A stretch of DNA of 24,449 nucleotides from Candidatus Methylomirabilis sp. (GCA_041498975.1 JBGQJI010000029.1:1-24449); one strand, 5' to 3'; numbered from the stretch's first letter, positions 2,245 to 24,424 are shown. Notes: generated from the letters alone by a model not told the origin. A program made the numbers and translations.

Positions 2245-3480
2245 TCAGCCGAGCGGTTGGCCCTTTTTCGCTGCGATCTCACGAATCAGCGCAAGGTACC
2301 GCTCCATATGAACTTCGGCCGTCCAGTTCCGCCGGTAACCCTTATAGCCACACAACCCCAGTTCACGCCGGGATGACGGGTCCGCCAATAACCGGTCCAT
2401 CGCTGCGACGAGCTCGCCCTCGGTGGCATAGACGAATCCGCCATTGCTCTCTGCGATAATCTCCGGCATTCCACCCAGGTTCCTGACAATCGCCGGCGTT
2501 TGCTGCCTGAAGGCCTCAAGAATTACCAGCGGGAAGACTTCGAAGCAGATGGATGGGACAATCACAGCCACAGCCTGTCGGTACAGGGCCTGCAGTGGCC
2601 GCTCGGACAGGTGGCCCAGGAAGCGGATGTTCACGCTATCCTTGGCTACCTCCCGCAATTCGGGCTCATAGGTGCCCCTCCCAGCGACCAACAACTTTGC
2701 CTTGCGGTAGTGACGGAACACGGGAATGAGCGTCTGCAGACCCTTGACCTTCTCCAGGCGTCCAACGAAGAGGAAAAAAGGCTCCTCCGACGCCTCGCCC
2801 ACAGACTGTTCGGAGGCTGCCGCCGCCGAGGACACGAATAGGGGCAGTTGGACAATGGGAACGTCGAGCCCCGCTTGCTTATGCTTGTCCATGCTGAAAC
2901 GGGTCGGAGCAATAAAGGCATCCACATGCTTGACCGAATCTTCCAGGAGGCCGAGATTCCTCCACCACTGCGGCGGGCGCTTATAAGTGAGGCTGCAGAG
3001 GAAGCAGCGCGGCCGGATGCACGGGGCGCGGTTGTATCGGAAGAGCACATGGGTGGGGCATATCAACCAGTACTCATGCATCGTGTAGAGCTTGATGGCT
3101 TGGCCGTACTCCAGGATCTTAGGCCCGCCAACCAGCGAGATGTTGTGGTAGTGGATCACGTCGAAGCGCATGTCGAGGATCTGGCGGATGCGGCCCGATT
3201 TGAAGAACGGATAGCCAGTCTGCTGAGTGGCCAGCGGCGAGAGAAAGCCGAACGGGCTCCTGAGCCCGTGGACGGTCACATTCGGATGATCGTCGTACCG
3301 TTCCGCCGGCTCCCGGCGGGCTCTCAGGCGGTATGCGTCGATACAGTGGATCACCTCCACCCGATGCCCGCGCCGCGCCAGTTCGTTGGCCAGGCGGTGC
3401 ACGAAGATCCCATCTCCCCCAAAGCTGTAGGGCGGATAAAACGTCGTGACCATGCAGAAGCGCAGCGGTCGCTCCATCAT
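2245..3480 (-). CDS. Glycosyltransferase family 4 (GT-B)
   Basis: N-terminal FYPP..GG, FVGRLEKVKG, and the E-x7-E motif EVFPLVILEA followed by GGMPEII. Start overlaps the deacetylase stop as ATGA. Confidence 0.92.
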   Translation of the reverse strand: MMERPLRFCMVTTFYPPYSFGGDGIFVHRLANELARRGHRVEVIHCIDAYRLRARREPAERYDDHPNVTVHGLRSPFGFLSPLATQQTGYPFFKSGRIRQILDMRFDVIHYHNISLVGGPKILEYGQAIKLYTMHEYWLICPTHVLFRYNRAPCIRPRCFLCSLTYKRPPQWWRNLGLLEDSVKHVDAFIAPTRFSMDKHKQAGLDVPIVQLPLFVSSAAAASEQSVGEASEEPFFLFVGRLEKVKGLQTLIPVFRHYRKAKLLVAGRGTYEPELREVAKDSVNIRFLGHLSERPLQALYRQAVAVIVPSICFEVFPLVILEAFRQQTPAIVRNLGGMPEIIAESNGGFVYATEGELVAAMDRLLADPSSRRELGLCGYKGYRRNWTAEVHMERYLALIREIAAKKGQPLG

Positions 3481-3810
3481 CGCGCGCTGAGGACTCCGAG
3501 GGACACGGCCCGGCGGAGCCGCCGGGGGATGCTGCGCGCCCTGATGTACCAGGGGAACAGACGCGTCGGCACCAGCGCGAAGAGCCGCTCGGTCCGGAGG
3601 TAGTAGGCATCCACGCGCTCGAGGGCGTAGGGGTCGCTCCGTAAGGTGACCAGGCCGAGCCGGTCGGAGCAGGCGCAGGCGAAGTGCTCGCGCACGAGGG
3701 CGCGGGAGCGCGCGTCGGAGCGCCCGTAGGGGTAGGCGAAGGTCGTAACCGGGGTGCCCATGGCCTCCTGGAGGATCGCCTGCGCGTCACAGACCTCCGC
3801 CCGGAGGCGG
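3431..3810. repeat. Direct repeat copy 1 (~380 bp), covering the deacetylase 3' half and the first codons of the GT4
   Basis: Matches 24045..24424 at offset 20614, with about 10 mismatches by hand count. Confidence 0.95.
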
Positions 3811-6326: not shown

Positions 6327-7580
6327 TCAACTTCCCGAGGAGAGGCCCTCAGCGGGCAGAAAATCCCTCCGTTCACTCTTGCCTTGCGTCCTGCTCCTCC
6401 AGGACCACCATATCCGATTTGCGATATATTTCAATGGCCGATACACGTAGTAGAAGGGCAACAGCCACGCGTGGCGGACGTGGTAGGCCCAACGCAGATG
6501 GCTTGCCGAAGGGAAAAGCATCCAGGCTACGACACGAACTCGAGGGCCCCAACCATTGGTTCTCCTGATCAGCCCCTTTAACTCTCCACGCGTGACCGCC
6601 AGCGCCGCAAATAAAGCGACCTCTCGACCGATGGCGTCCGTGCGTGAAGCAGCCACCCTCAAGCGTCCCAAAACGGCCGCAGGAATCTGAGCATTTAGAC
6701 CCTCCGCTAGATAACCAACCGTCACGGATAGCGGCAGTGCCAGATGGCTGCGGAGGGCACATTCCAGGAAAACGTCCCAGTCCAGATTCGGATGACAAGC
6801 CACGATATGCCAGGCATCGCACACCCACTGCAGCGACTGGTTGCTGCCGGAACAAGATGGCAGGCCACAGACGTGGAGGAGATTGTCGGCCGGTGAGAGG
6901 ACGCGCGTTGAAACGCCCGCAACGACCTGAGTCTGACTGCGTGCCCGCATGTCTGCTAATGGCGGACTGTAGTACGGTATTCGAAACAGACGGGCGTGCA
7001 GCTCAAGGGGAAGGCCGGACTCATGCGTGAGCTTCACGTGATCCTGGCCAGCACCAGACTCTTTCCCTGAGAGCGTAAATCCTAGTGGAGACAACATGCT
7101 GGCAGCACGTAAAAGATCACCCTCTTCTAGGAGAATATCGATATCATGGCTGTGACGAAGCGCCGGATCACCGTACACACTTTCCCCAAGCGCAGCGCCC
7201 TTGACCAGGATCTGCGAAACCCCTGCGCTAGTCAGCGTGGTGAGAACCTCCCGGAGGATGCGGGAATAGATCTTGGTACGCAACTCTTCTTTCAAAGAGG
7301 CAGTTCGTAGATACGTTAACAGCGAGTCGTCAACCACCGCACCGGTTCGTCGCAGTGCGACAAGCAGGAGGGGCGCCACCGTCTTGACCCCCTGTCTATC
7401 ATCTCCCAACAAGGCCCTAGGATCACCGGCTCTCTCCCGCCACACACCCCATGCTTTGCGTCCCGAGTCGCCGGAGTAGAGACAAGCACGCAGCAGCCAT
7501 GTCTGCTCCTCCGTTGGCAGGATAGCCGACAGGGTATCCGAAAGCGGAGGTTGCTCAAAAGCCGCTTCCCTCAGGCGCAT
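6327..7580 (-). CDS. Nucleotidyltransferase family protein (NTP_transf_5-like)
   Basis: LVKGAAL...YGDPALRHSHDIDILL, LELHARLF, WVCDA, LDWD. ATG 7580 with GAGGG upstream is preferred over the 7613 start in the ORF track. Confidence 0.85.
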   Translation of the reverse strand: MRLREAAFEQPPLSDTLSAILPTEEQTWLLRACLYSGDSGRKAWGVWRERAGDPRALLGDDRQGVKTVAPLLLVALRRTGAVVDDSLLTYLRTASLKEELRTKIYSRILREVLTTLTSAGVSQILVKGAALGESVYGDPALRHSHDIDILLEEGDLLRAASMLSPLGFTLSGKESGAGQDHVKLTHESGLPLELHARLFRIPYYSPPLADMRARSQTQVVAGVSTRVLSPADNLLHVCGLPSCSGSNQSLQWVCDAWHIVACHPNLDWDVFLECALRSHLALPLSVTVGYLAEGLNAQIPAAVLGRLRVAASRTDAIGREVALFAALAVTRGELKGLIRRTNGWGPRVRVVAWMLFPSASHLRWAYHVRHAWLLPFYYVYRPLKYIANRIWWSWRSRTQGKSERRDFLPAEGLSSGS

Positions 7581-7801
7581 TGAAATACGCCCTCGAACGT
7601 GTGATCGACACAAGGCCCCATCATTACCGCGATACCCTTACTCACACCAGTGCAGCGCGAGGAACTGACCCAACCAAGCGCCGCCAGCATATCAGTTGCC
7701 TGCCCCAGGCCACAGGGCCGAGCGCGAAAGCCGGCCGTGATCTCCTCGGTTTCATCGGTTTCTCCCGATCCCATTCTCACGGTTACCATCCCCCAGTCAC
7801 A

Positions 7802-8485
7802 TTATGGCGTACGGCAACGTTGACGCCTGACCGAGTCTCTCAAAACGTTCAGAAGGTTGTCGTGGAAGTCTCGGGAACTATACGTGGTGTTGGCGTCGTG
7901 CATGCGTTTCTGAACCAGTACCTGGGGAATAACGCCCATTGGCACGTCCATATCCTTGGCCTTGGCGTACCAGTCAACGTCTTCCGCTGTAGTGTACTCC
8001 GGGTTGAATCTTCCCACGAGGCCGAACACTGATCTGCGCGCCACCAGTGTTTCCATCATGCGGCCGACATGGTCGCCTTCCAGTAACTCCTCCTTGAACC
8101 TGGATGGGACGTGCACCCCTGGTTCGAGAAAGAATTTTACCCTTGTAACAGTGTATTGGATTTCCGGATGACGAGTCATATAGCCGATCTGGAGGGCCAA
8201 TTTGTTGGGCATCCACAGATCGTCGTGCGAGAGAAATGCAAAGAACTCCCCATCAGCAGCGTCAATACCGACGTTCCAAGCGTCACCAACACCCCGATTG
8301 GTTTGTCGGATATATCGAACGACTCCATACGATCTAGCGATCTCGGCAGTCCTGTCAACCGACTGACCATCTACGACGATGAGCTCGATTGGCTTATAGT
8401 TCTGCTGAAGAACGCTGTCAATTGCCGAGGCCAAGAAGCGCTCACCGTTCTTTACCGCGATGATTGCGCTCACCAAAGGCCCCAT
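7802..8485 (-). CDS. Glycosyltransferase family 2 (GT-A), the most divergent paralog
   Basis: LVSAIIAVKNGERFL, VVDGQSVD, AFLSHDDLW, EDVDW. ATG 8485 has GAGGAGG upstream. Confidence 0.9.
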   Translation of the reverse strand: MGPLVSAIIAVKNGERFLASAIDSVLQQNYKPIELIVVDGQSVDRTAEIARSYGVVRYIRQTNRGVGDAWNVGIDAADGEFFAFLSHDDLWMPNKLALQIGYMTRHPEIQYTVTRVKFFLEPGVHVPSRFKEELLEGDHVGRMMETLVARRSVFGLVGRFNPEYTTAEDVDWYAKAKDMDVPMGVIPQVLVQKRMHDANTTYSSRDFHDNLLNVLRDSVRRQRCRTP

Positions 8486-8793
8486 CAATTCCCTGATCCC
8501 TCCTCGTGCACTCCGCACTCCTATCGGCGACCTCTCAGCAATGAATGGCAAGGTGCGGCCGCACGTTCTGTCTCCGACCTTGGCAAACATGTGATCTTGC
8601 CCATACCCTCCAGATCATCATTCATGCTGACCCGAGGATCGCTCGTACGAGGCGGTACCGCAGGATCGTCTTGGCACTCAGTGTCTCTCCTCTGTGCCCC
8701 AGCAGACAAGCTCCAACATGTGAAACCTTCGCGACGCGCGGCAGAAACAGGCTCCGGGGAATGCAGACTCCCCGATGTGCCAGCTCAAGCCGC

Positions 8794-9540
8794 TCAGTCC
8801 GTCTGCTGGCAGTGTGTAGCGTGGAACGGAACGGGTCCGTGGGCCGGACCATCCTGACGGCGCCGCCGATCGAGAGACGCCTTGACGATCCCCAAGAGTG
8901 CATCTTGACTGGCGGAGGCCTCGACACGGCTCATGTTGGTCCGGTGCAAGCGGCGGCATACGAGGACATCCGGCAATAGCTCCATGACCGCCCCCTGCTC
9001 CCCCGCACGCAAAAACCACTCGGTATCATCTCCATGCTGCAGCCTGACGTTGAACTGACCTACCACGTCGAAGAGTCTCCGCCGGGCCAGGAGCGTTTGA
9101 GTGATATAGCCGGGCAACGCCCGCGAAAGGCGATGATCCCGCAACCGCTTCGCTTCTTCGCGCAGTTCCGGAACCCAGAAGTTCTGCACGTGCGTGACAC
9201 AGAGGTCCAGTTCGGGGCGGGCCTCAAACCGGGCCATCTGGCGAGCCAACTTCTCCGGATGCCACAGGTCGTCCGAGTCGAGAAAGGCGACAAACTCACC
9301 TCGTGCGGCGCTCACCCCCAGGTTACGAGTCGATGGCAACCCTGTGTGAGGCTGCCACAGGTGCCGAATTTGCTCGCCGTAGCCGGCCACCAGTTCAGGC
9401 GTGCCATCGGTCGAGCCATCGTCGGCGACGATGATCTCCAGCGGCCGATAGGTCTGCGCCCGGATGCTGTCCAGCGCCTCCCGCAGGTAGCGCTCGCCGT
9501 TGAAGACGGGCACGATACAACTGATCAGGGGGAGCGTCAT
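8794..9540 (-). CDS. Glycosyltransferase family 2 (GT-A)
   Basis: ISCIVPVFNGERYL, ADDGSTD, FLDSDDLW, GDDTEWF. Confidence 0.93.
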   Translation of the reverse strand: MTLPLISCIVPVFNGERYLREALDSIRAQTYRPLEIIVADDGSTDGTPELVAGYGEQIRHLWQPHTGLPSTRNLGVSAARGEFVAFLDSDDLWHPEKLARQMARFEARPELDLCVTHVQNFWVPELREEAKRLRDHRLSRALPGYITQTLLARRRLFDVVGQFNVRLQHGDDTEWFLRAGEQGAVMELLPDVLVCRRLHRTNMSRVEASASQDALLGIVKASLDRRRRQDGPAHGPVPFHATHCQQTD

Positions 9541-9552
9541 GACACAGCCGGC

Positions 9553-10299
9553 CTAGCGCTTTTGCTGCCAGCCTGAACCCGAGAACTCAGTGGACCAGGG
9601 GACCGCCTCATTCCGAAGTCGCCGACGATCGAGTGACCCTTTCACGATGTGCAAGTACTCATCGCGGCTCGCAGATGCCTCGCGCCGGCTGAGGTTGCAG
9701 TGGTGCATACGATGATATGTCAACACACCGGATAATAATTCCATGACCGCGCCATGCTCCGCGGCCCTTAAGAACCACTCCGTGGCGTCCCCATGCCGAA
9801 ATGCCGTATTGAACCGGCCCACCCGATCGAAGAGGGTGCGCCGCGCCAGGAGCGTGCCTGTGTAATAACCGGGCATCGCCTGTGCGCGCGGATGATCACG
9901 ATATTGCAGTTCTTCTTGGATCAGTTCGGGAATCCAGAAGTTCCGAACGTGCGCCACGCACAGGTCGAGTTCGGGGCGCGCCTGAAACCGGGACATCTGG
10001 CGGGCCAACTTCTCCGGATGCCACAGGTCGTCTTGGTCGAGAAAAGCCACGAATGGACCCTGCGCCGCGCTTAGGCCGAGGTTTCGCGTCGCTGCCGGCC
10101 CGGAGGTGGACTGCCGCAAGAGGCGAACCTCCTCGCTATAGGAAACCACCACTGCCCGCGAACCATCGGTCGAGCCATCGTCGGCGACGATGATCTCCAG
10201 CGGCTGGTAGGTCTGCGCTCGGATGCTGTCCAGCGCCTCCCGCAGGTAGCGCTCCCCGTTGAAGACGGGCACGATGCAACTGATCAGAGGAAGCGTCAT
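9553..10299 (-). CDS. Glycosyltransferase family 2 (GT-A)
   Basis: ISCIVPVFNGERYL, ADDGSTD, FLDQDDLW, GDATEWF. Confidence 0.93.
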   Translation of the reverse strand: MTLPLISCIVPVFNGERYLREALDSIRAQTYQPLEIIVADDGSTDGSRAVVVSYSEEVRLLRQSTSGPAATRNLGLSAAQGPFVAFLDQDDLWHPEKLARQMSRFQARPELDLCVAHVRNFWIPELIQEELQYRDHPRAQAMPGYYTGTLLARRTLFDRVGRFNTAFRHGDATEWFLRAAEHGAVMELLSGVLTYHRMHHCNLSRREASASRDEYLHIVKGSLDRRRLRNEAVPWSTEFSGSGWQQKR

Positions 10300-10309
10300 G
10301 ACAGGTGGC

Positions 10310-11071
10310 CTAGCGCTTTTGCTGCCAGCCCGAACCCGGGAACTGATAGGGGGCCGCTACCGACCCATCCCGACGTGGGCGGCGCCGATCAAGTGATGCC
10401 TTTAGCACCTGCAATAGGACGTCTCGTTCCCTTGAGTTAACGCGAGTCAAACCCCAGCTTATGTTGGTCTGGTGTAAACGGCGATACACGAGAACCTCAG
10501 GCAGGATCTCCATGACCGCCCCGTGCTCGGCCGCATGCAAGAACCAGTCTGTATCCTCTCCAGCAGGCAATCCGGTGTTAAACGCGCCCACCATATCGAA
10601 GAGCGTGCGCCGTGTCAGGAGCGCCTGGCAAACATACCCGGGTATCGCCGGCGCGAGGCGGGGATGGCCTCGATACCCCGAGGCCTCCCCCGCGAGCTCC
10701 GCGACCCAGAAGTTTTGCACGTGCGTCACACAGAGGTCGAGGTCGAGCCGCGCCTGAAAGCGGGCCATCTGGCGGGCCAACTTCTCCGGATGCCACAGGT
10801 CGTCCGCGTCGAGGAAGGCCACGAAGTCGCCTTGAGCCGCGCGTAGCCCCAGATTCCGCGCGGCCGCCGGCCCCGCGTTTGGCTGTGTCAGGTAGCGCAC
10901 GTGCTCCCCGAAGCCAGCCACCACGGCCGCCGTCCCATCGGTCGAGCCATCGTCGGCGACGATGATCTCCAGCCGCCGATAGGTCTGCGCCCGGATGCTG
11001 TCCAGCGCCTCCCGCAGGTAGCGCTCGCCGTTGAAGACGGGCACGATACAGCTAATCAAGGGAGGTTTCAT
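10310..11071 (-). CDS. Glycosyltransferase family 2 (GT-A)
   Basis: True start MKPPLISC at ATG 11071, which overlaps the kinase stop as ATGA. Motifs ADDGSTD, FLDADDLW, GEDTDWF. Confidence 0.93.
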   Translation of the reverse strand: MKPPLISCIVPVFNGERYLREALDSIRAQTYRRLEIIVADDGSTDGTAAVVAGFGEHVRYLTQPNAGPAAARNLGLRAAQGDFVAFLDADDLWHPEKLARQMARFQARLDLDLCVTHVQNFWVAELAGEASGYRGHPRLAPAIPGYVCQALLTRRTLFDMVGAFNTGLPAGEDTDWFLHAAEHGAVMEILPEVLVYRRLHQTNISWGLTRVNSRERDVLLQVLKASLDRRRPRRDGSVAAPYQFPGSGWQQKR

Positions 11072-12183
11072 GACCCGTTTGCCATCGCCAGAAGCTCCTC
11101 TACACGCGCCGGAATCTCCGACAGATCGTGGCCCAACTCCAGCCAGTAACTGGAAACCCGCTCGACGAGCTGAACCAGTCTCCCGAAGCCACAATCCTCC
11201 GGGCTGAGTGCCATGAAAAGGGAGCTCGGCCCCACTGCAAGGAGGGCTTCGCCTTTCGAAGCGGGGCGAATCCGTGACTGAGGGGCATCCACGATACGTG
11301 GAAGCGCCAGCGCCTTGATCGGCACGGAACATTCGAGCCGCTTCGGAAAGACCTGCGAAAGCAGAATGAGAGACTTTTCTTCGTAGGGAAATCTGCCCTT
11401 AATGGCATGAGGAATCAAGCCTGGAAACCGCGCCAGGTCATCCGTCTCCAAGAACACTGAATTATAGAGACTGTGGCCCACGAAGGAACCCTCCGGCAGA
11501 CGTTGCAGGCCGACAAAGTCTTCACTGAGATAGTTAAACCCAGCACACAGGCATGCCAAGGTTGAGGTGGACTTTCCAGACCCACTCCTGCCGGCAAAGA
11601 GGACCCCTTGCTGATTTCGGGAAACCAGGCCGGCGTGGATCACCTGTACATTGCGGTCGTTGTGCCACATCACCAACGGCCTGGTTAAGGGTTTTCCGCG
11701 TTCATAGATGAAGACATCATCGCTCCATGCTATGGAGCCGATGATGTGGTCAGCTTTCCGATCCAAGCAGGTGAAGGTATTCGGCAACCGCTGCCCCAAA
11801 TACCGGCCGTCGGGCGATACTGCCGTGACATCTGCCCATCCGGGGTCACGACGCGCCGGACCGAGACGAAGGCGGATGTTCGTTTCATTCTCATCCCAGA
11901 GGTCGATGGTGAGCTGAGGGTCGGGCGAGACGGATCCGTTCATTCGCAAATGGGAGAACGGGCGAACAATCTGCTCCGCCAGGTCCCGCCCCACGATACG
12001 TATCCGCACGATCTGACCCGCGAACGTGTAGTGCGACTCGAGGAGGCGATCTGGATTTGTCGCAACCGCTTGTCCAAAAGCAGTCCGCATCCTGCTGAAC
12101 ATGGCCTCGCCATCCAGGATGGCCCAGCCGCGGGCCACGCCCGCATATCGCACCGGAACCGTCTGCGCAGACGCGTCCTCCAT
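11068..12183 (-). CDS. HPr kinase/phosphorylase-like P-loop kinase
   Basis: IHAGLV, Walker A GRSGSGKST, acidic motif YLSEDFV and C-terminal YWLELG, typical of HprK-related kinases. RBS AGAAGGA upstream. Confidence 0.85.
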   Translation of the reverse strand: MEDASAQTVPVRYAGVARGWAILDGEAMFSRMRTAFGQAVATNPDRLLESHYTFAGQIVRIRIVGRDLAEQIVRPFSHLRMNGSVSPDPQLTIDLWDENETNIRLRLGPARRDPGWADVTAVSPDGRYLGQRLPNTFTCLDRKADHIIGSIAWSDDVFIYERGKPLTRPLVMWHNDRNVQVIHAGLVSRNQQGVLFAGRSGSGKSTSTLACLCAGFNYLSEDFVGLQRLPEGSFVGHSLYNSVFLETDDLARFPGLIPHAIKGRFPYEEKSLILLSQVFPKRLECSVPIKALALPRIVDAPQSRIRPASKGEALLAVGPSSLFMALSPEDCGFGRLVQLVERVSSYWLELGHDLSEIPARVEELLAMANGS

Positions 12184-12203: not shown

Positions 12204-12656
12204 TTACCCTGGGGTTCCCTCGGTTGGCTCCTTCCAGGGGATCTCCTGGAGCGTGGGCATGGGCGGATCGAGGGCGAGCAGGTCTCCCATGTCACGATAG
12301 ATATTGAGCATGGGCGATTCGTAAGGTTTTCTATCTTCCGACTGAGTGTTCTCGTTCTGCCGAGGTGGTGGCGCGAGGTGTGACAGAACAACCAGGTTTT
12401 CTTGCATGAGTTCCCCCGCCAGCCGTTCGACGTCGGCTTGTGCCTGTTTGTCCGAGACGTCATAGCGCGAGACGATCGCCCCGATGATCTCCTGCAAACT
12501 GTGCCCCCCTTCGATCATCTCCCAGAGCAGACCCCCGACCTTGTCCATACTATAGTACATCCCGTTGGAGAGGTTGATGATGATCGCCTCGCCATCGAGG
12601 ACCTTGGCGGCGACCTCCGCCTCATTGGGGCGCAGGCGATTCTGCAGCGTCAGCAT
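12204..12656 (-). CDS. PqqD-family/RiPP recognition element (RRE) protein with a C-terminal leader-like extension
   Basis: AKVLDGEAIIINLSNGMYYSMDKVGGLLWEMI...YDVSDKQAQADVERLAGELMQENLV is a PqqD-type pattern. ATG 12656 has GGAGG about 6 nt upstream. A tail of roughly 55 aa follows the domain. Confidence 0.9.
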   Translation of the reverse strand: MLTLQNRLRPNEAEVAAKVLDGEAIIINLSNGMYYSMDKVGGLLWEMIEGGHSLQEIIGAIVSRYDVSDKQAQADVERLAGELMQENLVVLSHLAPPPRQNENTQSEDRKPYESPMLNIYRDMGDLLALDPPMPTLQEIPWKEPTEGTPG

Positions 12657-13770
12657 GAGCAGCCTCCTGGACCAGTTTCCGATAGAGCGCGACATAGGCA
12701 TCCACGCAACGTTCCAGGCTGAATAGCTTCTGTGCCCGGTGACGAGCGGTCTGACCCATCAGTATCGCTGATTCCGGCTGTTCGAGGAGCATGGCGATCG
12801 CCTCGGCGAGGGCCCCGCTGTCCTCCTTCTCGACGAGCAATCCGGTCTGTTGATGGACCACGACTTCCGGAAGCCCCCCGACATCTGTCGCCACGATAGG
12901 GCGGGCCATCAGGGCTGCTTCCAATGCCACTAGGCCGAAAGGCTCCTCCCATCGAGACGGCATGACGACCACTGTGGCAGTGTTGATCAGAGCCGGCACC
13001 TTGTCCGGGGCGACCCAGCCAGCGAAGTGTACAAGCCCGTTGAGGCCCAGCTCGGCCGCCTGCTGTTCCAACGCGGGCCGCGCCGCCCCATCCCCGGCAA
13101 TGACCAGGCGTGCATGAGGAAAGCGGCCACGCAGCGAGGCAAACGCCGTCAAGGCCAGATCAAAACCTTTATCATTGATAAGTCGGCCCAAGCACAGCAG
13201 CCGTGGCGTATCGCTGGGAAGGGGCTCAGGATTGAGGAGCGGCACGTCCAGGCCATTGTGAATGACGGAGGAGCAAGGGATGATCTCCGGCACTAGATGG
13301 CGAGCTTCGGCGAGCAACGCTGCCGAGCAAGCGGTGACCCAATCAGCACGGCGCAGAGTCTGTCCCACGAGGGTGTCATGGCCGAGATCCTTATTCGGCC
13401 CGGGTCCGTGCAATGTGACCAACAACGGCGCTCGATGAACATCTGCCGTCTGGAAATAGAAAAAGGCACTGGCACCGACGATGTGCATATGGACCACATC
13501 CGGTGCGAAGGCGCGCTTCAGCTTGGCGACCCGCTGCCGGACTTCCATCAGTTGGTCGATATTGGCATCGGCCAACGCCATCCAAAAAGGGAAACGGTAT
13601 ACGGGAACACCTTTGTACTGTGTTTCGCTCGGGAGATCTAGCGCAGCCTGCGGTGTCACCACGATGACCGCACAGTTACGCTCCCGCAAGGCCAGCGCTA
13701 CCTGCGCGAGCAGGACCTCGGCGCCCCCTATGATTGGCCAAAATGACTCCGACCATAGCAGGATCCGCAT
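12622..13770 (-). CDS. Glycosyltransferase family 4 (GT-B)
   Basis: MRILLWSESFWPIIGGAE (ATG 13770, GGAGGAGG upstream), LGRLINDKG, EPFGLVALEA, GGLPEVV. Confidence 0.93.
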   Translation of the reverse strand: MRILLWSESFWPIIGGAEVLLAQVALALRERNCAVIVVTPQAALDLPSETQYKGVPVYRFPFWMALADANIDQLMEVRQRVAKLKRAFAPDVVHMHIVGASAFFYFQTADVHRAPLLVTLHGPGPNKDLGHDTLVGQTLRRADWVTACSAALLAEARHLVPEIIPCSSVIHNGLDVPLLNPEPLPSDTPRLLCLGRLINDKGFDLALTAFASLRGRFPHARLVIAGDGAARPALEQQAAELGLNGLVHFAGWVAPDKVPALINTATVVVMPSRWEEPFGLVALEAALMARPIVATDVGGLPEVVVHQQTGLLVEKEDSGALAEAIAMLLEQPESAILMGQTARHRAQKLFSLERCVDAYVALYRKLVQEAAHADAAESPAPQ

Positions 13771-13974
13771 GACTAAGGCGACACCCTCCTCCTGGATGTG
13801 ATCAGCCTTGTAATGACCAGAGCAGTTTCTGTGCTCCCGCGCTCTCCAGCTCCAAGAATCTCGCCAAGCGGGTCTGTTGTTGCATTCATTTGCATGTTGC
13901 CGCATGCAGCCACACGACTGCCACACGGCACATCAACGAGTCTCTGCTCCCCCACTTCGGCCAGAGGCCGGGAA

Positions 13975-14691
13975 CTATTGCGCCGCTGAAGCTGACACAT
14001 CGCGACGCCGACGACGATCAAGGGACGCCTTCACGATTTGTAAGTATTGATCCCGACTGGCTGCCCCCAAGTGGCGCGTGCGGTTACCATGGTGTAAACG
14101 ACGATACAGAAGGACATCGGGCAACAATTCCATGACCGCCCCGTGTTCCACCGCGCGCAGGAACCACTCGGTGCTGTCTCCATGTTGCAATGCCTCGTCA
14201 AATTGCCCCACCGTGTCAACGAGAGCTCGCCGCGTAAGAAGCGCACAGGTGGTATACCCCGGCACCGCGTTCGTGAGGCGGGGATGACCCCTGTACCGTG
14301 CCGCCTCTTCCGTCAGCTCCGGGACCCAGAAGTTCTGCACGTGTGTGACGCAGAGGTCGAGGTCTGGGCGCGCCTCAAACCGGGCCATCTGGCGGGCCAA
14401 CTTCTCCGGATGCCACAGGTCGTCCGCATCGAGGAAGGCCACAAACTCGCCCTGGGCCGCCCCCAACCCCAGGTTGCGCGCCGCCGCCGGCCCCGCATTC
14501 GGCTGGGACAGATAGCACACCTGCTCCCCGAAGCTCGCCACGAGGGCCTGTGTCCCATCGGTCGAGCCGTCGTCGGCCACGATGATCTCCAGCGGCCGGT
14601 AGGTTTGCGCCCTGATGCTCTCCAGCGCCTCCCGCACGAAGCGTTCGCCGTTGAAGACGGGGACGATGCAGCTAATCAATGCGGGAGCCAT
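13975..14691 (-). CDS. Glycosyltransferase family 2 (GT-A)
   Basis: ISCIVPVFNGERFV, ADDGSTD, FLDADDLW, GDSTEWF. Closest to 17012..17761. Confidence 0.93.
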   Translation of the reverse strand: MAPALISCIVPVFNGERFVREALESIRAQTYRPLEIIVADDGSTDGTQALVASFGEQVCYLSQPNAGPAAARNLGLGAAQGEFVAFLDADDLWHPEKLARQMARFEARPDLDLCVTHVQNFWVPELTEEAARYRGHPRLTNAVPGYTTCALLTRRALVDTVGQFDEALQHGDSTEWFLRAVEHGAVMELLPDVLLYRRLHHGNRTRHLGAASRDQYLQIVKASLDRRRRRDVSASAAQ

Positions 14692-14721: not shown

Positions 14722-15603
14722 TCACCCGAGCCTTACTGTCGCTTCCGCTCTGTAGCGTCGAGGGGTGATCTCGATTCTCCTGCCGGGCGGCACCGGGCCC
14801 GTCGGGGGCAGCGGACAGTTCAGGCACAGGTGATACTTCTCCCGCCGCCCCGCGATGAGGTCCTCGACAACCTGGACATGGCGTCCCGAGAGCCACAGGT
14901 CCTCCAGTGAATCTTGGTAGACGTTACCCAGTTTGAAGGCCCCGTATGTGTCCTCACAGCAGTTACACACCTCGCCGTCATGCTGGATGATCATGCGTAT
15001 GAGGGGGCGATGGCAGGGTGCATTGGCGTACGTGAAGTCCGGGATGGCCACGCGCGAGTCGGAAGGCACCAGGGCCTTGGGTACCCCGTTGCTGTGGCCG
15101 GACCGCACCCCCGATAGGCCAATGGGGTTGAAGGCGAGATTGGCGCCGGCGAGCCTGGCTTGCCAGTACCGCTTGGTCTCCTCTAGCTCCTCCTGCATCT
15201 CATAGTCGTACAGACCGACGACGATGAGCTTGTAAACGCTCTTGACCTCCTCGCACAGCACATCGTCGCGCCTGAGCCTGTCACCGTTGGTGTGAAGGTA
15301 AGGCTCCATGCCCCGCTTGTTTGCCTCCTTGGCGAGCATGACGTTGCGATCGTCGAGCAACGGCTCGGAATAGTGGTGAAACGCTACTCGCCCCATGAAT
15401 CCCATGCGTTGGGCTTGGTCGAGGAGGTCGAGGATCTTCTCCGTGGGCATCCGATTGAAGACGGCCTTCCCCGTTTCGTCGAGGTACTTTCCGGAGCGGT
15501 CATAGGTGCGGGGGCAAAACCAGCACGAGCGATTGCAGTTCGACTGCGACTCTATCAAGAGGCGCTCGAACAAGGGAATTCTGCTCTTAGACCGACCAGC
15601 CAT
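14722..15603 (-). CDS. Radical SAM enzyme with a C-terminal SPASM/twitch-like domain
   Basis: CNRSCWFC (CxxxCxxC), YSEPLLD, LHTNG, then PCHRP...DGEVCNCCED...LGNV...LEDLW...CLNC. ATG 15603 with GGAG upstream is preferred over TTG 15654. Confidence 0.9.
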   Translation of the reverse strand: MAGRSKSRIPLFERLLIESQSNCNRSCWFCPRTYDRSGKYLDETGKAVFNRMPTEKILDLLDQAQRMGFMGRVAFHHYSEPLLDDRNVMLAKEANKRGMEPYLHTNGDRLRRDDVLCEEVKSVYKLIVVGLYDYEMQEELEETKRYWQARLAGANLAFNPIGLSGVRSGHSNGVPKALVPSDSRVAIPDFTYANAPCHRPLIRMIIQHDGEVCNCCEDTYGAFKLGNVYQDSLEDLWLSGRHVQVVEDLIAGRREKYHLCLNCPLPPTGPVPPGRRIEITPRRYRAEATVRLG

Positions 15604-15656
15604 AGAGCTCTCCGATTCACCCGCCAGCGTGGAGGCTCCTGGGACCTCGGCCAACC

Positions 15657-15728
15657 CGCCTCGCCGGCGAGGACCTCGCTGGCAGCCTTCGTTTCATCGC
15701 GGCGGAGGTGATCCCGAAGCACCAACAT
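15657..15728 (-). pseudogene. N-terminal relic of a second PqqD/RRE gene
   Basis: MLVLRDHLRRDETKAASEVLAGEA aligns with MLTLQNRLRPNEAEVAAKVLDGEA of 12204..12656, and has the same 35-nt overlap with the upstream GT4 3' end. Confidence 0.8.
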
Positions 15729-16838
15729 AAGCGGCCCCATGGATCAGTCTCCGGTAGAGCGCGTCATAGGAATCGACGTGACGTTCCAAACTGAAGAGCC
15801 TTTGCCCCCGGACACGGCCAGCCCGCCCCATCTTCGTTGCTACTTCAGGATTATCGAGGAGCAATGCGATCGCGTCGGCGAGAGCCTCGCTGTCTTCCTG
15901 TTCGACGAGCAATCCGGTCTGCTGGTGCACGACGACTTCGGAAGTCCCCCGACCCGCGTCGCCACCACCGGGCGAGCCATGACGGCCGCCTGTAATGCCA
16001 CATTGGGGAGCCCCTCCCACCGAGAGGGCATGATGACGACTGTGGCAGTGTTCATCAGCTCCGGCACCTTGTCCGGGGCGACCCACCCAATGAAATCGAC
16101 AGAGTGGGTGAGTCTTAGCCCAGCGGCCTGCCGCTCCAACGGCGGTCGTGCTGGGCGGTCCCCACCGATGACCAGTCGTGCACGAGGGAAACGGTCACGT
16201 AGTGAGGCAAAGGCGCTCAAGGCGAGATCAAACCCTTTCTTGGGAACAATCCGACCCAAGCACAGCAGCCGTGGAGGATTACTCGGCAATGGCGCGGGAA
16301 AGAGACCGGGCTCGTCCAGGCCATTATGAATGACGCATGAACGGGGAGTGATCTCCGGCGCCAGTTGGCGGGCATCGGCCAGCAGTGCCTCCGAGCAGGT
16401 GGTAACCCAATCAGCGGTTCGTAGGGCTTGTCCCAGTAACGTGTCAGACCCTACAGCGTGGATCGGTAAGGCACTGCGGACCGTAAACAGAAACGGTGCT
16501 GGATACGCCGCGGCCGTGCGGAGGTGAAAATAGACAGCGGGGCCCGTATAGTTCATGTGAATCAGGTCGGGTTTGAAATGCTGCTTGAGCCTGACGGCCT
16601 GTTTCTGGATCTCCATCAACTGGCTCGGGTCACGCGTCGCCAGCGCCTTTCGAAAAGGAAAGCGGTGGATGGGAATCCCCCTGTGCTGGCCTGTATCTGG
16701 AAGATCGAGATGATCGTGCGAGGTCACGACGATGACCTCATAGCCTCGCTCCCTCAAGGCCGGGACGAGCTTGGCGGCGAGAACCTCGACGCCCCCAATG
16801 TAAGGCCAGAACAGCTCCGTCCAGTATAAGACTCGCAT
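15694..16838 (-). pseudogene. Glycosyltransferase family 4 with a 1-bp deletion frameshift near 15939 (pseudogene or sequencing error)
   Basis: The frame reads VGGLP|KSS. The continuation EVVVHQQTGLLVEQEDSEALADAI lies in ORF 15694..16086. The paralog has CCG GAA GTC where this copy has CCG AAGTC. Confidence 0.85.
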
Positions 16839-17011: not shown

Positions 17012-17761
17012 CTAGGCTGTCCAGCGCCGGTCCGAGGCCGGGAACTCATAGGGTGGAGCGACCACCGCATCAAGACGCCGACGGCGATTGAGCGACGCCT
17101 TCACGATCTGCAGGTATTCATCGCGACTCGCAGAGCCTTGGCGTCTGCTGAGGTTGCCGTGGTGCATCCGATGATATGTCAGAACCTCGGGCAATAGTTC
17201 CATGACCACTCCATGCTCAGCCGCCCGCAAGAACCACTCGGTATCGTCTCCATGCTGCAATGCCTCGTCGAGTTTCCCCACCGTGTCAAAGAGAGCGCGC
17301 CGCGTAAGCAGCGTACAAGTGGTATACCCCGGCACCGCGTTCGTGAAGCGGGGATGGTCCCGGTACCGGGCCGCCTCTTCGATCAGCTCCGGGACCCAGA
17401 AGTTCTGCACGTGCGTGACGCAGAGGTCGAGGTCGGGCCGCGCCTGAAACCGGGCCATCTGGCGGGCCAACTTCTCCGGATGCCACAGGTCGTCCGCATC
17501 GAGGAAGGCCACGAACGCCCCCTGGGCCGCGCGCAGGCCCAGGTTCCGCGCCGCGGCCGGCCCCGCATTGGGCTGGGACAGATGGTGAACTGGTTGATCG
17601 TAGCTGGCCACGATGGCCGCCGTCCCATCGGTCGAGCCGTCGTCGGCAACGATGATCTCCAGCGGCCGGTAGGTCTGCGCCCAAATGCTGTCCAGCGCCT
17701 CCCGCACGAAGCGCTCGCCGTTGAAGACGGGCACGATGCAACTGATCAGGGGGGGTGTCAT
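17012..17761 (-). CDS. Glycosyltransferase family 2 (GT-A)
   Basis: True start MTPPLISC at ATG 17761. Motifs ADDGSTD, FLDADDLW, GDDTEWF. Confidence 0.93.
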   Translation of the reverse strand: MTPPLISCIVPVFNGERFVREALDSIWAQTYRPLEIIVADDGSTDGTAAIVASYDQPVHHLSQPNAGPAAARNLGLRAAQGAFVAFLDADDLWHPEKLARQMARFQARPDLDLCVTHVQNFWVPELIEEAARYRDHPRFTNAVPGYTTCTLLTRRALFDTVGKLDEALQHGDDTEWFLRAAEHGVVMELLPEVLTYHRMHHGNLSRRQGSASRDEYLQIVKASLNRRRRLDAVVAPPYEFPASDRRWTA

Positions 17762-17920
17762 GACCGGGTGACCTCCGCCAAGAGCTCGTCCACGCCCGCC
17801 GGAATCTCCCCCAGGTCGCGGCCCAACTCCAGGCAGCAACTGCGGATGCGCTAGACAAGCTGGGCGAGTTGCTGAAAGCCGCAGGGGCCGGGAACGGGGA
17901 CCATCAACAGATTGGAGCTA
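17758..17920 (-). pseudogene. C-terminal relic of a second HprK-like kinase
   Basis: Translates as ...CGFQQLAQLV*RIRSCCLELGRDLGEIPAGVDELLAEVTRS*, against CGFGRLVQLVERVSSYWLELGHDLSEIPARVEELLAMANGS* in the intact kinase. In-frame TAG at 17851-17853, and the same ATGA overlap with a GT2. Confidence 0.85.
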
Positions 17921-21337: not shown

Positions 21338-22408
21338 ATGTTCTCTAGTCTGAACATCCCCCGAGAGGGAGCCGCGCTCCTTACGCTGGCACGTGCTGCC
21401 CTTTCAGCGGGCCCCAGTCCTACCGAGGACTTCCCGTCCTCGCTCGATTGGACCTTCCTTCTACGGTTGGCGCGCCACCATCGACTCGAGCCACTCCTGT
21501 CCTATGGCCTCCGCCGGTCCCACTTCGGTGGCATCCCGGCCAAGGTGCGCGAAGAGTGGGACGACCGCCGTCTCCATGCGGTTGCCCGCGCCCTCTACCA
21601 TCAGAAGGCTCTGGTGGCGATCGCGGCGGCCTTCGATGGCCGGCGGGTCCCGTTTATCCTCCTGAAGGGTGAGGCTCTCTCGAAGGCGCTGTACCCTCAG
21701 GACGGGCTACGTCCCTATGGCGACATCGACCTCCTCATACGGCCGGAGGCCTACGAGTCGGCAAAGGCGGCTCTGGCAGAGTTAGGATTTCAGCTCCGGC
21801 ATGCAACCAAGGAGTCTGATCAGCGACGGATTTTCGGAGAGGTCGAGTTCGATACGGAGGGGCCCCGAGCCATAACGGTGGACCTCCATTGGGATACGCT
21901 GATGACTTCATGGGAGCCACGCTCTCTTTTCACTGAGTACGAGACATGGGACACCCCTGATCATATTCGCCTCGGGGATTGCGACATACCGGTCCTCAAG
22001 GGGGAGATTCTTCTCCTCTTCCTCAGTGTCCATTTCGCGTTCCACCATATGTTCGACGGGCTGCTGCTCCTTTGCGATCTCTTCCTGGTTCTCAGGCGCG
22101 ACGCAGAACGGATCGACTGGGATCGCCTCATTGCCCTCACCAACCGATGTCGGTGCCAACGTGCGCTCTTCTACTGCCTCCACTTCGTGCACGCGCTCAT
22201 GGATGCTCCCGTGCGTCCGGACATCCTCGACCGGTTGCGACCGCCCGGATCGATCCGGGCCCTCATGCCAACCGGTCGATTGCTCTTTCGGGACACCGTG
22301 GTACCGAAGATGCTCGAACGATACGTTAAATTTCTCTTGATCGATGCGCGTGGAGGACGATGGCGGGCAGTGAAGGCCTGGATCGAGGTCACGTTGAAAG
22401 GTGTATGA
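21338..22408 (+). CDS. Nucleotidyltransferase family protein (NTP_transf_5-like)
   Basis: LDW..LLRLARHHRL, ILLKGEAL...YPQDGLRPYGDIDLLI, VDLHW, LCDL, IDWD. Confidence 0.88.
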   Translation: MFSSLNIPREGAALLTLARAALSAGPSPTEDFPSSLDWTFLLRLARHHRLEPLLSYGLRRSHFGGIPAKVREEWDDRRLHAVARALYHQKALVAIAAAFDGRRVPFILLKGEALSKALYPQDGLRPYGDIDLLIRPEAYESAKAALAELGFQLRHATKESDQRRIFGEVEFDTEGPRAITVDLHWDTLMTSWEPRSLFTEYETWDTPDHIRLGDCDIPVLKGEILLLFLSVHFAFHHMFDGLLLLCDLFLVLRRDAERIDWDRLIALTNRCRCQRALFYCLHFVHALMDAPVRPDILDRLRPPGSIRALMPTGRLLFRDTVVPKMLERYVKFLLIDARGGRWRAVKAWIEVTLKGV

Positions 22409-24044: not shown

Positions 24045-24094
24045 GGCGGAGAGAACGTCGTGACCATACAGAAGCGCAGCGGTCGCTCCATCAT
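24045..24094 (-). pseudogene. Truncated 5' stub of a GT4 gene
   Basis: MMERPLRFCMVTTFSPP is identical to the start of 2245..3480 except Y>S. Unrelated sequence follows, with a stop near 23940. Confidence 0.8.
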
Positions 24095-24424
24095 CGCGCG
24101 CTGAGGACTCCGAGGGACACGGCCCGGCGGAGCCGCCGGGGGATGCTGCGCGCCCTGAGGTACCAGGGGAACAGACGCGTCGGCAGCAGCCCGAAGCGCC
24201 GCTCGGTCCGGAGGTAGTAGGCGTCCACGCGCTCGAGGGCGTAGGGGTCGCTCCGTACGGTGACCAGGCCGAGCCGGTCGGAGCAGGCGCAGGCGAAGTG
24301 CTCGCGCACGAGGGCGCGGGAGCGCGCGTCGGAGCGCCCGTAGGGGTAGGCGAAGGTCGTGACCGGGGTGCCCATGGCCTCCTGGAGGATCGCCTGCGCG
24401 TCACAGACCTCCGCCCGGAGGCGG
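24045..24424. repeat. Direct repeat copy 2 of 3431..3810
   Basis: Near-identical sequence with about 10 mismatches in 380 nt. Similarity degrades after about 24430. Confidence 0.95.

Follow-up and report, generated by a model that had tools for sequence, protein, structure and literature searches.

The PqqD-tail gene and its protein

The stretch of DNA analyzed here, 24,449 nt from Candidatus Methylomirabilis sp. (GCA_041498975.1 JBGQJI010000029.1:1-24449; hereafter the window, meaning the whole stretch), contains a long minus-strand operon that includes a gene for a small PqqD-like protein with a conserved C-terminal tail (the PqqD-tail gene, 12204..12656, minus strand). The operon runs in the order glycosyltransferase family 2 (GT2; 13975-14691), glycosyltransferase family 4 (GT4), PqqD-tail, HprK-like kinase, four GT2 genes, and a PF14907 nucleotidyltransferase. 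The open reading frame (ORF) of the PqqD-tail gene spans 12204-12701 on the minus strand and specifies 165 aa, with APPPRQNENTQSEDRKPYESPMLNIYRDMGDLLALDPPMPTLQEIPWKEPTEGTPG as its C-terminal end before the stop. The first in-frame ATG is at 12701, and M16 at 12656 is the probable start because AGGAGG lies six bases upstream of that ATG and because the resulting protein of 150 aa (plus stop) has the length of most homologues among 120 listed matches. Residues of the features below are numbered on the 165-aa frame.

In order, the protein consists of a PqqD domain (residues 38-104, Pfam E 1.1e-15), a low-complexity stretch APPPRQNENTQSEDR, and the segment KPYESPMLNIYRDMGDLLALDPPMPTLQEIPWKEPTEGTPG, which runs to the stop codon. 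Four parts can be delimited behind the probable start. Residues 16-107 (12381..12656, minus strand) form a PqqD-like winged helix of the kind that serves as a recognition element (RRE) for peptides that are made by ribosomes and modified after translation (RiPPs), as assigned by Pfam, an AlphaFold2 (AF2) model, Foldseek, and profile comparison. A variable Pro/Ala/Glu-rich linker of nearly fixed length and with no conserved column follows (residues 108-125; 12327..12380, minus strand), and leads to a leader-type RRE-binding motif, P-Y-E-S-P-M-L-N-I-Y (YxxPxLxxY; residues 126-135; 12297..12326, minus strand), here termed module 1 and delimited by conservation, the AF2 model, tandem proteins, and covariation. 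Module 2, R-D-M-G-D-L-L-A-L-D-P-P-M-P-T-L-Q-E-I-P-W-K-E-P, is defined by its near-invariant positions (residues 136-159; 12225..12296, minus strand) and is probably an exposed docking or recognition segment, judging from the model. The short, variable, acidic C-terminal end (TEGTPG; 12207..12224, minus strand) contains Ser/Thr and is a candidate modification site on the Ser/Thr statistics of the family's tails. An earlier note, made by a model from the sequence of the window, had placed YESPML at 12306-12323 and likened it to the signature of lasso leaders; translation puts Y127-L132 at 12323-12306, with the lasso spacing kept, R136 at the Gly(-8) site, L142 at the Thr(-2) site, and no Gly-initiated core thereafter, all as that note described.

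The RRE domain is of the lasso B1 type. Compared with solved RREs, the family profile matched TbiB1 (1e-20), PbaB1 (3e-15), LppB (6e-10), and TfuB1 (1e-8), and the best Foldseek matches of the AF2 model were leader-bound TbiB1 (5v1v; E 2e-5, template modeling score 0.89) and TfuB1 (6jx3). The model, built from an alignment of 118 homologues, has a mean predicted local distance difference test score (pLDDT) of 88.6 and shows in the RRE domain, at pLDDT 94-98, the β1-β5/α1-α3 topology described for B1-type RREs (PMC13381572). All 118 family members match NCBIfam lasso PqqD models at E<=0.001 (best E 2.3e-18), and the window protein itself stays below the cut-offs of both lasso_PqqD_Bac (57.8 bits, cut-off 80) and lasso_PqqD_Strm (34.4 bits, cut-off 70). 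Two other assignments were considered and rejected: a PqqD of PQQ biosynthesis (TIGR03859, 20.7 bits vs a cut-off of 46, with no pqq genes among the window ORFs), and an HPr-rel-A partner PqqD (TIGR04353, which matches just 2 of the 118 family members, at best 1.1e-5).

Conservation of the tail and its docking on the RRE

The pattern YxxPxL is, on its own, within chance: the six-frame translation of the window (48,894 residues) contains it 8 times, and it is present in 4,703 of 100,000 shuffles (4.7%) of the PqqD-tail protein. The tail motif is judged to be real because it is conserved in homologues, and not from the six-residue pattern. A word-indexed protein search with the PqqD-tail protein returned 1094 matches at E<=1e-3, and an exhaustive search of 50%-identity representatives returned 8037 matches at E<=1e-3 and 970 at E<=1e-10. 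Across the alignment of 118 homologues (35-92% identity), the tail, on whose conservation the proposal of the earlier note depended, is conserved to the same degree as the core of the domain, and the linker between the two (residues 105-125) has zero conserved residues. Within module 1, Y127 is kept in 114, P130 in 117, and L132 in 107 of the 118 homologues, and Y135 in 93, with Phe in 19 more. Within module 2, the corresponding counts are 113 for D137, 112 for M138, 115 for A143, 116 for D145, 117 for P146, 118 for P147, and 117 for P149; L142 and L144 are also near-invariant, and W156 is kept in 74 of 108. Ten close homologues that seemed to be tailless were inspected: two keep the tail on a longer linker, and of the eight that do not have module 2, six continue in unrelated sequence, as a frameshift or misassembly would produce, and two end in the linker.

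The consensus of module 1 is P-[YF]-x-x-P-x-L-x-x-Y and that of module 2 is D-M-x-D-L-L-A-L-D-P-P-x-P-G-L-x-D-x-P-W-K-E-P, with the latter starting exactly 10 residues past the Tyr in 199 of the 200 proteins in which it was found. Behind module 2 come 0-14 variable residues, in which Gly, Ser, Glu, Pro, and Asp are frequent. Amongst 275 distinct tails, the fraction of Ser/Thr is 0.46-0.49 at the seventh and eighth positions after the Trp (W+7 and W+8), and in the window protein W+4 and W+7 are both Thr. No Pfam or NCBIfam model covers the tail. Searched against PDB sequences, the tail alone gave 0 matches at E<=10, so that no solved leader chain is detectably similar to it, and in a feature-atlas search its best score (0.75) was under the level reached by shuffled proteins.

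Some proteins of the family have repeated domains. Of the seven tandem proteins inspected, five have two PqqD domains and two have three; behind every PqqD repeat there is a separate linker and a separate P[YF]xxPx motif, and module 2 is present only once, at the C-terminus. Such a pairing, with one module 1 for each RRE, is as expected of an intramolecular ligand. The tandem proteins are metagenomic (P0038, P0122, P0123, P0128, P0131, P0204, P0232, and P0224), and each of the eight is closed by a single terminal DMxD[LV]LxLDP...GW module. Unlike the other seven, P0224 has looser motifs behind its domains (F-D-P-P-M-L and F-T-P-P-L-L). In the three-domain proteins, the Tyr of the motif is replaced by Phe and the distal module reads LDPIHDF..YGWP.

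The AF2 model places module 1 on the RRE of the same chain. The block that contains module 1 is predicted at pLDDT 97 and contributes an added strand, with the pairing read from the DSSP string; the linker blocks are less confident (pLDDT 84 and 77), and module 2 is predicted at pLDDT 64-73 with a short helix. The strand falls on the three residues after the Leu (+1 to +3), and two-residue bridges are found at the two residues before the Tyr (Y-2/Y-1) and at Y65-D66 (150-aa numbering). The crystal structures described for PbaB1-PbaA and LppB-LppA show β4 extended by the three residues after the leader Leu/Val, and the residues just before the leader Tyr/Trp anchored to the backbone of the D66 equivalent (PMC13381572). 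The predicted strand and bridges match the register and the anchor of that description. Additionally, LppB D70, which hydrogen-bonds the leader Tyr, corresponds in the profile alignment to D90 here, kept in 113 of 118 homologues, and the LppB pocket residues F74, M78, L83, and Y60 align with conserved L/F, L, L, and Y. Counted from the invariant Asp, the motif Tyr lies 35-38 residues away in 200 of 223 proteins, and the spacing is exactly 37 in 140.

Covariation points in the same direction. In an analysis of mutual information with average product correction (298 sequences, effective number 229), the strongest pair in the whole protein was D/E66 with K/R109, and of the top ten pairs between the RRE and the motif, six fall on and four next to equivalents of the LppB leader contacts. 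The variable positions amongst these contact equivalents covary with the motif above other variable positions (one-sided p=0.018), and there was no such excess when the linker (0.99), distal tail (0.96), or C-terminus (0.35) took the place of the motif. The AF2 model, the tandem repeats, the linker length, the conserved pocket and Asp, and the covariation together support computationally that module 1 docks in cis on its own RRE, as the earlier note had suggested for the YxxPxL tail.

The cassette and its genomic setting

A genome scan that used the closer-homologue alignment as its query recovered 78 related loci. These originate from Deltaproteobacteria, Binatia, Rokubacteria, Gemmatimonadota, Acidobacteriota, Bacteroidota, Nitrospirota, Chloroflexota, Abditibacteriota, Planctomycetota, Verrucomicrobiota, Thermotogota, Bipolaricaulota, and others, and none of the 78 is titled Bacillota. 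Neighbors were counted in the 48 loci that include at least 5 kb to either side of the gene. A GT2 gene was present within 6 kb in all 48, an HprK-like kinase gene in 42, a PF14907 nucleotidyltransferase gene in 40, and a GT4 gene in 38. The gene immediately downstream of PqqD-tail is the kinase in 25 of 48 loci and GT2 in 16, the immediate upstream neighbor is GT4 in 18, and in several loci the PqqD-tail and kinase genes overlap by 4 nt. In a complete Abditibacteriota genome (L034) and in a second locus (L055), a seven-gene cassette in the order PF14907, GT4, PqqD-tail, kinase, GT4, GT2, PF14907 stands between housekeeping genes. The other ORFs near the cassettes include components of ABC transporters (17), NAD-dependent sugar epimerases (13), and sulfotransferases (7).

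No convincing free precursor or peptidase was visible to the earlier note, and this observation extends to the 78 related loci. Clustering of 11,314 ORFs of 20-110 aa from these loci and the window revealed no conserved precursor, within the reach of BLASTP, by which very divergent short precursors could be missed; the recurrent clusters, where inspected, were wrong-frame shadows of GT2, GT4, PqqD, or kinase genes. Searches with the tail alone had 0 matches amongst long proteins and a single match amongst proteins <90 aa, a protein of 62 aa on an 866-nt contig that is probably a fragment. A family scan of 273 further locus ORFs (25 commonest Pfam families per list; six ORFs >1000 aa excluded) contained no peptidase or transglutaminase-type protease amongst those commonest families, a scope that a rare peptidase of a single locus would escape. 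Asn_synthase was found in 4 of the 273 ORFs and GATase_7 in 4, and no lasso cyclase recurs in the related loci. The 17 window ORFs include no B2 cysteine protease, no Asn-synthetase-like lasso cyclase, and no peptidase family.

The kinase gene (11068..12183, minus strand) lies immediately downstream of PqqD-tail, and its product has a P-loop, GRSGSGKST, at ~11566-11592. The protein gives weak matches to TIGR04352, TIGR04355, and Hpr_kinase_C, its family profile matches HPrK/P 1jb1 in the P-loop region (1.7e-8), and H183, G198, G203, K204, and D222 are invariant in the family alignment. The AF2 model (pLDDT 90.9) has two domains and resembles ATP-dependent PEP carboxykinases. These sequence and model features fit an active kinase of the HprK/PEPCK type. 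Assignment as the HPr-rel-A kinase was rejected (TIGR04352, 40.3 bits vs a cut-off of 200).

Amongst the remaining genes of the window, the GT4 gene upstream of PqqD-tail (12622..13926, minus strand; Pfam Glycos_transf_1, 6.7e-41) overlaps its start, and the GT2 gene downstream of the kinase (10310..11332, minus strand; Pfam Glycos_transf_2, 7.2e-36) has a probable start near 11074. The PF14907 nucleotidyltransferase gene of the operon (6327..7613, minus strand) has a second copy at 21338-22408 on the plus strand, with Pfam NTP_transf_5 matches of 4.8e-35 and 4.2e-56 for the two copies. The wider window holds a radical SAM/SPASM gene (14722-15654), a further GT2, two ATP-grasp genes, two deacetylases, a flippase, and, as further GT4 genes or fragments, three ORFs (15840-16838, 2245-3480, and a partial one at 3-479). 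The first of these GT4 ORFs (minus strand, 332 aa) may be frameshifted or truncated, since its Glycos_transf_1 match ends at profile position 129 of 172 and its C-terminus looks unrelated.

Several parts of the window are repeated. Five of its six GT2 genes are close paralogues with near-identical N-termini (8794-9540, 9553-10299, 10310-11332, 13975-14691, and 17012-17839), corresponding to repeat families D1-D4 with 64-91% DNA identity, an unusual local amplification of one small glycosyltransferase; the sixth (7802-8590) is more divergent. A truncated second copy of the 5' end of PqqD-tail lies at 15657-15950 (minus strand), chiefly at 15660-15740, where ~26 codons (MLVLRDHLRRDETKAASEVLAGEAG...) can be aligned to the beginning of the real gene, along with the 3' end of the upstream GT4. 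The homology ends where the radical SAM/SPASM gene begins, and the copy looks like the remnant of a segmental duplication of GT2-GT4-PqqD with a spacing of 3070 nt. Two long direct repeats (3431-3730 and 24045-24344; 1-300 and 3002-3301), 97% and 81% identical, link the left part of the window to both its ends, and the junction of deacetylase and GT4 appears from these sequences to have been duplicated recently.

Some of the related loci have peculiarities of their own. A 13-kb stretch from a deltaproteobacterial metagenome-assembled genome (MAG; L003) carries three PqqD-tail genes (2802-3248, 8243-8689, and 10829-11275) that are identical over their last 75 residues and interleaved with GT2 and GT4 genes, and it has no kinase or PF14907 gene within the 13 kb. 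In three loci from Thermotogota and Bipolaricaulota MAGs (L050, L057, and L068), each cassette has two tandem HprK-like genes, and the PF14907 domain lies in an unusually long ORF of ~800-900 aa as called, possibly by over-extension. An HD_4/DUF6817 protein recurs near the cassettes (L005 7407-8171, L035 4139-5161, and at least two other loci); DUF6817 was found in 3 of the 131 ORFs of one locus-ORF set and in one more ORF of the other.

A protein that may be its own precursor

The reading favored here, to which a probability of about one half is given, is that the protein is a fusion of RRE and precursor whose own tail would be offered to the cassette's kinase, nucleotidyltransferases, and glycosyltransferases without removal of a leader. 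Under this proposal, the lasso-B1-type RRE would bind in cis the YxxPxL motif that is tethered to it by a linker of ~20 residues, in the mode known for free leaders: the Tyr would occupy the first hydrophobic pocket and be hydrogen-bonded to the conserved Asp, the Pro and Leu would fill the second pocket, and the next three residues would add a strand to β4. Docked in this manner, module 1 would anchor and orient the rest of the tail, so that DMxDLLALDPPxPGL..PW would remain exposed as a recognition element for the HprK-like kinase, the GT2/GT4 enzymes, and the PF14907 nucleotidyltransferases, and these enzymes would modify the short, acidic, Ser/Thr-bearing C-terminal end. As the 150-aa protein would be its own precursor, no leader peptidase would be needed.

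Several observations weigh against this proposal. No hydroxyl acceptor is invariant: 37 of the 275 distinct tails have no Ser/Thr past DPPxP, and of the 118 aligned sequences, 39 have none past the Trp and eight end at the Trp, counts that rule out a universal Ser acceptor. The loci in which the cassettes occur are of polysaccharide type, with flippases, ABC-2/Wzt transporters, and sugar epimerases among their genes, and the substrates of the cassette enzymes could thus be glycans. An intact module 2 is also present in loci that have no kinase within 10 kb, and thus the kinase need not be its partner. A precursor may be encoded elsewhere in the genome, as the searches covered the 78 loci, the window, and the protein collection. 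Further, the strand pairing in the AF2 model comes from the DSSP string and not from inter-residue contacts, and the covariation test is modest, with an effective number of 229 sequences, phylogeny uncorrected, and gaps in column 109.

In the main rival reading, the protein would be an adaptor or activator and not a substrate: the cis-bound motif would do no more than complete and stabilize the RRE, leaving it permanently loaded with a leader, and this unit and module 2 would recruit or switch on the kinase, glycosyltransferases, and nucleotidyltransferases, which would act on a glycan, a lipid-linked intermediate, or another protein of the polysaccharide locus. The inconstant acceptor, the presence of GT2 as a universal neighbor in polysaccharide-type loci, and the persistence of module 2 where no kinase is nearby all favor such a role, and the tandem proteins with two or three self-filled RREs look scaffold-like. 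LppB is described as insoluble without its leader, and leader mutants as reducing soluble LppB (PMC13381572), so a fused motif could also serve stability. Conversely, in the only characterized relatives, the linear polyphosphorylated peptide (LPP) systems and the paeninodin-type lasso peptides, the enzyme set is described as acting on the RRE-bound peptide, Ser/Thr are positionally enriched near the C-terminus, and module 2 is conserved like a catalytic motif, a degree of conservation that suits a substrate or recognition sequence no less than a docking site. An adaptor is a possible but less likely explanation.

The earlier note had also raised autoinhibition, in which the tail would act as a leader mimic that fills the cleft until a free precursor from elsewhere displaces it. 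The motif is of the kind used by free leaders, the AF2 model places it on the RRE, and the precursor search was confined to the loci, the window, and the protein collection rather than being genome-wide. Yet the 78 loci and the window yielded no conserved small ORF, the protein collection all but lacks a free tail-like peptide (one match), and no peptidase that would release a product was found in the window or amongst the commonest locus families. A tethered ligand, with its high local concentration and a linker of fixed length, would also be hard to displace, and every RRE repeat of the tandem proteins has a motif of its own; taken together, these points make autoinhibition improbable. Least credible by far is that this is an ordinary lasso B1 protein whose disordered tail has the motif by chance. 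The frequency of YxxPxL in shuffled sequences and the nearness of the domain to lasso B1 proteins would allow it, but the tail is near-invariant across phyla, the window has no B2 protease, cyclase, or lasso precursor and none of these recurs in the loci, and the lasso_PqqD_Bac score of 58 stays short of its cut-off of 80.

Should the protein indeed be its own precursor, the consequences would reach beyond this locus. RREs are understood as receptors for a separate leader, and with a natural built-in ligand the complex of RRE and leader could function as a unit by itself. A 2025 survey in mSystems found that 21% of PF05402 matches are longer than 110 aa without another Pfam domain and flagged them as unexplored (PMC12710340); a family that carries its own leader would account for part of them. 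The PqqD-tail gene would also offer a single-gene handle on the PF14907 nucleotidyltransferases and on HprK-like kinases outside Bacillota, and would connect machinery of the RiPP type with the polysaccharide loci of many uncultivated phyla. In genome mining, a cluster with neither a precursor ORF nor a peptidase could then still be complete. A bolder version, speculative and rather doubtful, is a multi-phylum, one-piece, RiPP-like class with RRE, leader, and core in one chain, in which the tail would be polyphosphorylated and then glycosylated or nucleotidylated, perhaps as a glycan primer or anchor in exopolysaccharide loci, and in which the tandem forms would be multi-enzyme scaffolds.

The closest characterized system, the LPP clusters of Bacillota (LppA/LppB/LppK/LppN/LppS/LppD), was described by Popov et al. 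(Nat Commun 2026, PMC13381572). As described there, a discrete RRE binds the YxxPxV motif of a separate precursor, an HprK-like kinase polyphosphorylates the core Ser3 just past the leader, the core genes include a PF14907-type NTP transferase without observed activity, and the leader is removed by an SpI peptidase, with the clusters lying in glycosyltransferase-rich capsule loci. The authors report that the leader beyond the RRE-binding motif makes no contact with the RRE and consider that it probably addresses the enzymes. The PqqD-tail system shares with this description a B1-like RRE with a YxxPx[V/L] motif, an HprK-like kinase and an NTP transferase beside the RRE (a likeness to LppK and LppN at the level of the protein family), and a setting in glycosyltransferase-rich polysaccharide loci with no macrolactam cyclase. 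By analogy, the logic of the single chain would be the same as that of LPP: an RRE, a tether, an RRE-binding motif, a conserved exposed segment, and an acidic end. The two systems differ in that the LPP precursor is a separate protein of 35-200 aa with an N-terminal leader, whereas here the motif is fused C-terminally to the RRE; in that LPP has an archaeal-type SpI peptidase (LppS) and an MsbA-type pump as a core gene, whereas no SpI was found here; and in that the sequence after YxxPxL (DMxDLLALDPPxP..W) is unrelated to the xHQxIxFETxxS given for LPP, with only YxxPx[L/V] in common. Further, LPP is a system of Bacillota and the 78 loci described here belong to many non-Bacillota phyla.

The nearest relatives in sequence and fold are the B1 proteins of split-B lasso peptide systems (TbiB1 5v1v/5v1u, TfuB1 6jx3, and PbaB1 9x90). 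The Tyr/Pro/Leu knobs, the conserved Asp, and the co-encoded HprK-like kinase and nucleotidyltransferase are likewise those of split-B lasso and paeninodin-type systems. Unlike those systems, with their leader of YxxPxLx3Gx5Tx, the present one has no B2 protease, cyclase, Gly(-8), Thr(-2), or ring-forming core, and its ligand is intramolecular. Literature searches in Creative Commons-licensed PMC papers and bioRxiv turned up no account of an RRE to which a leader-like tail is fused. Fusions of a leader have been made in the laboratory, where engineered RiPP enzymes with the leader tethered by a flexible linker are constitutively active. The fusion described here is, in contrast, natural, ancient, and widespread, and joins the leader-like motif to a stand-alone RRE and not to a catalytic enzyme. 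The system is placed here with the LPP/paeninodin type of RRE-dependent tailoring, as a form of it that has its leader fused in cis.

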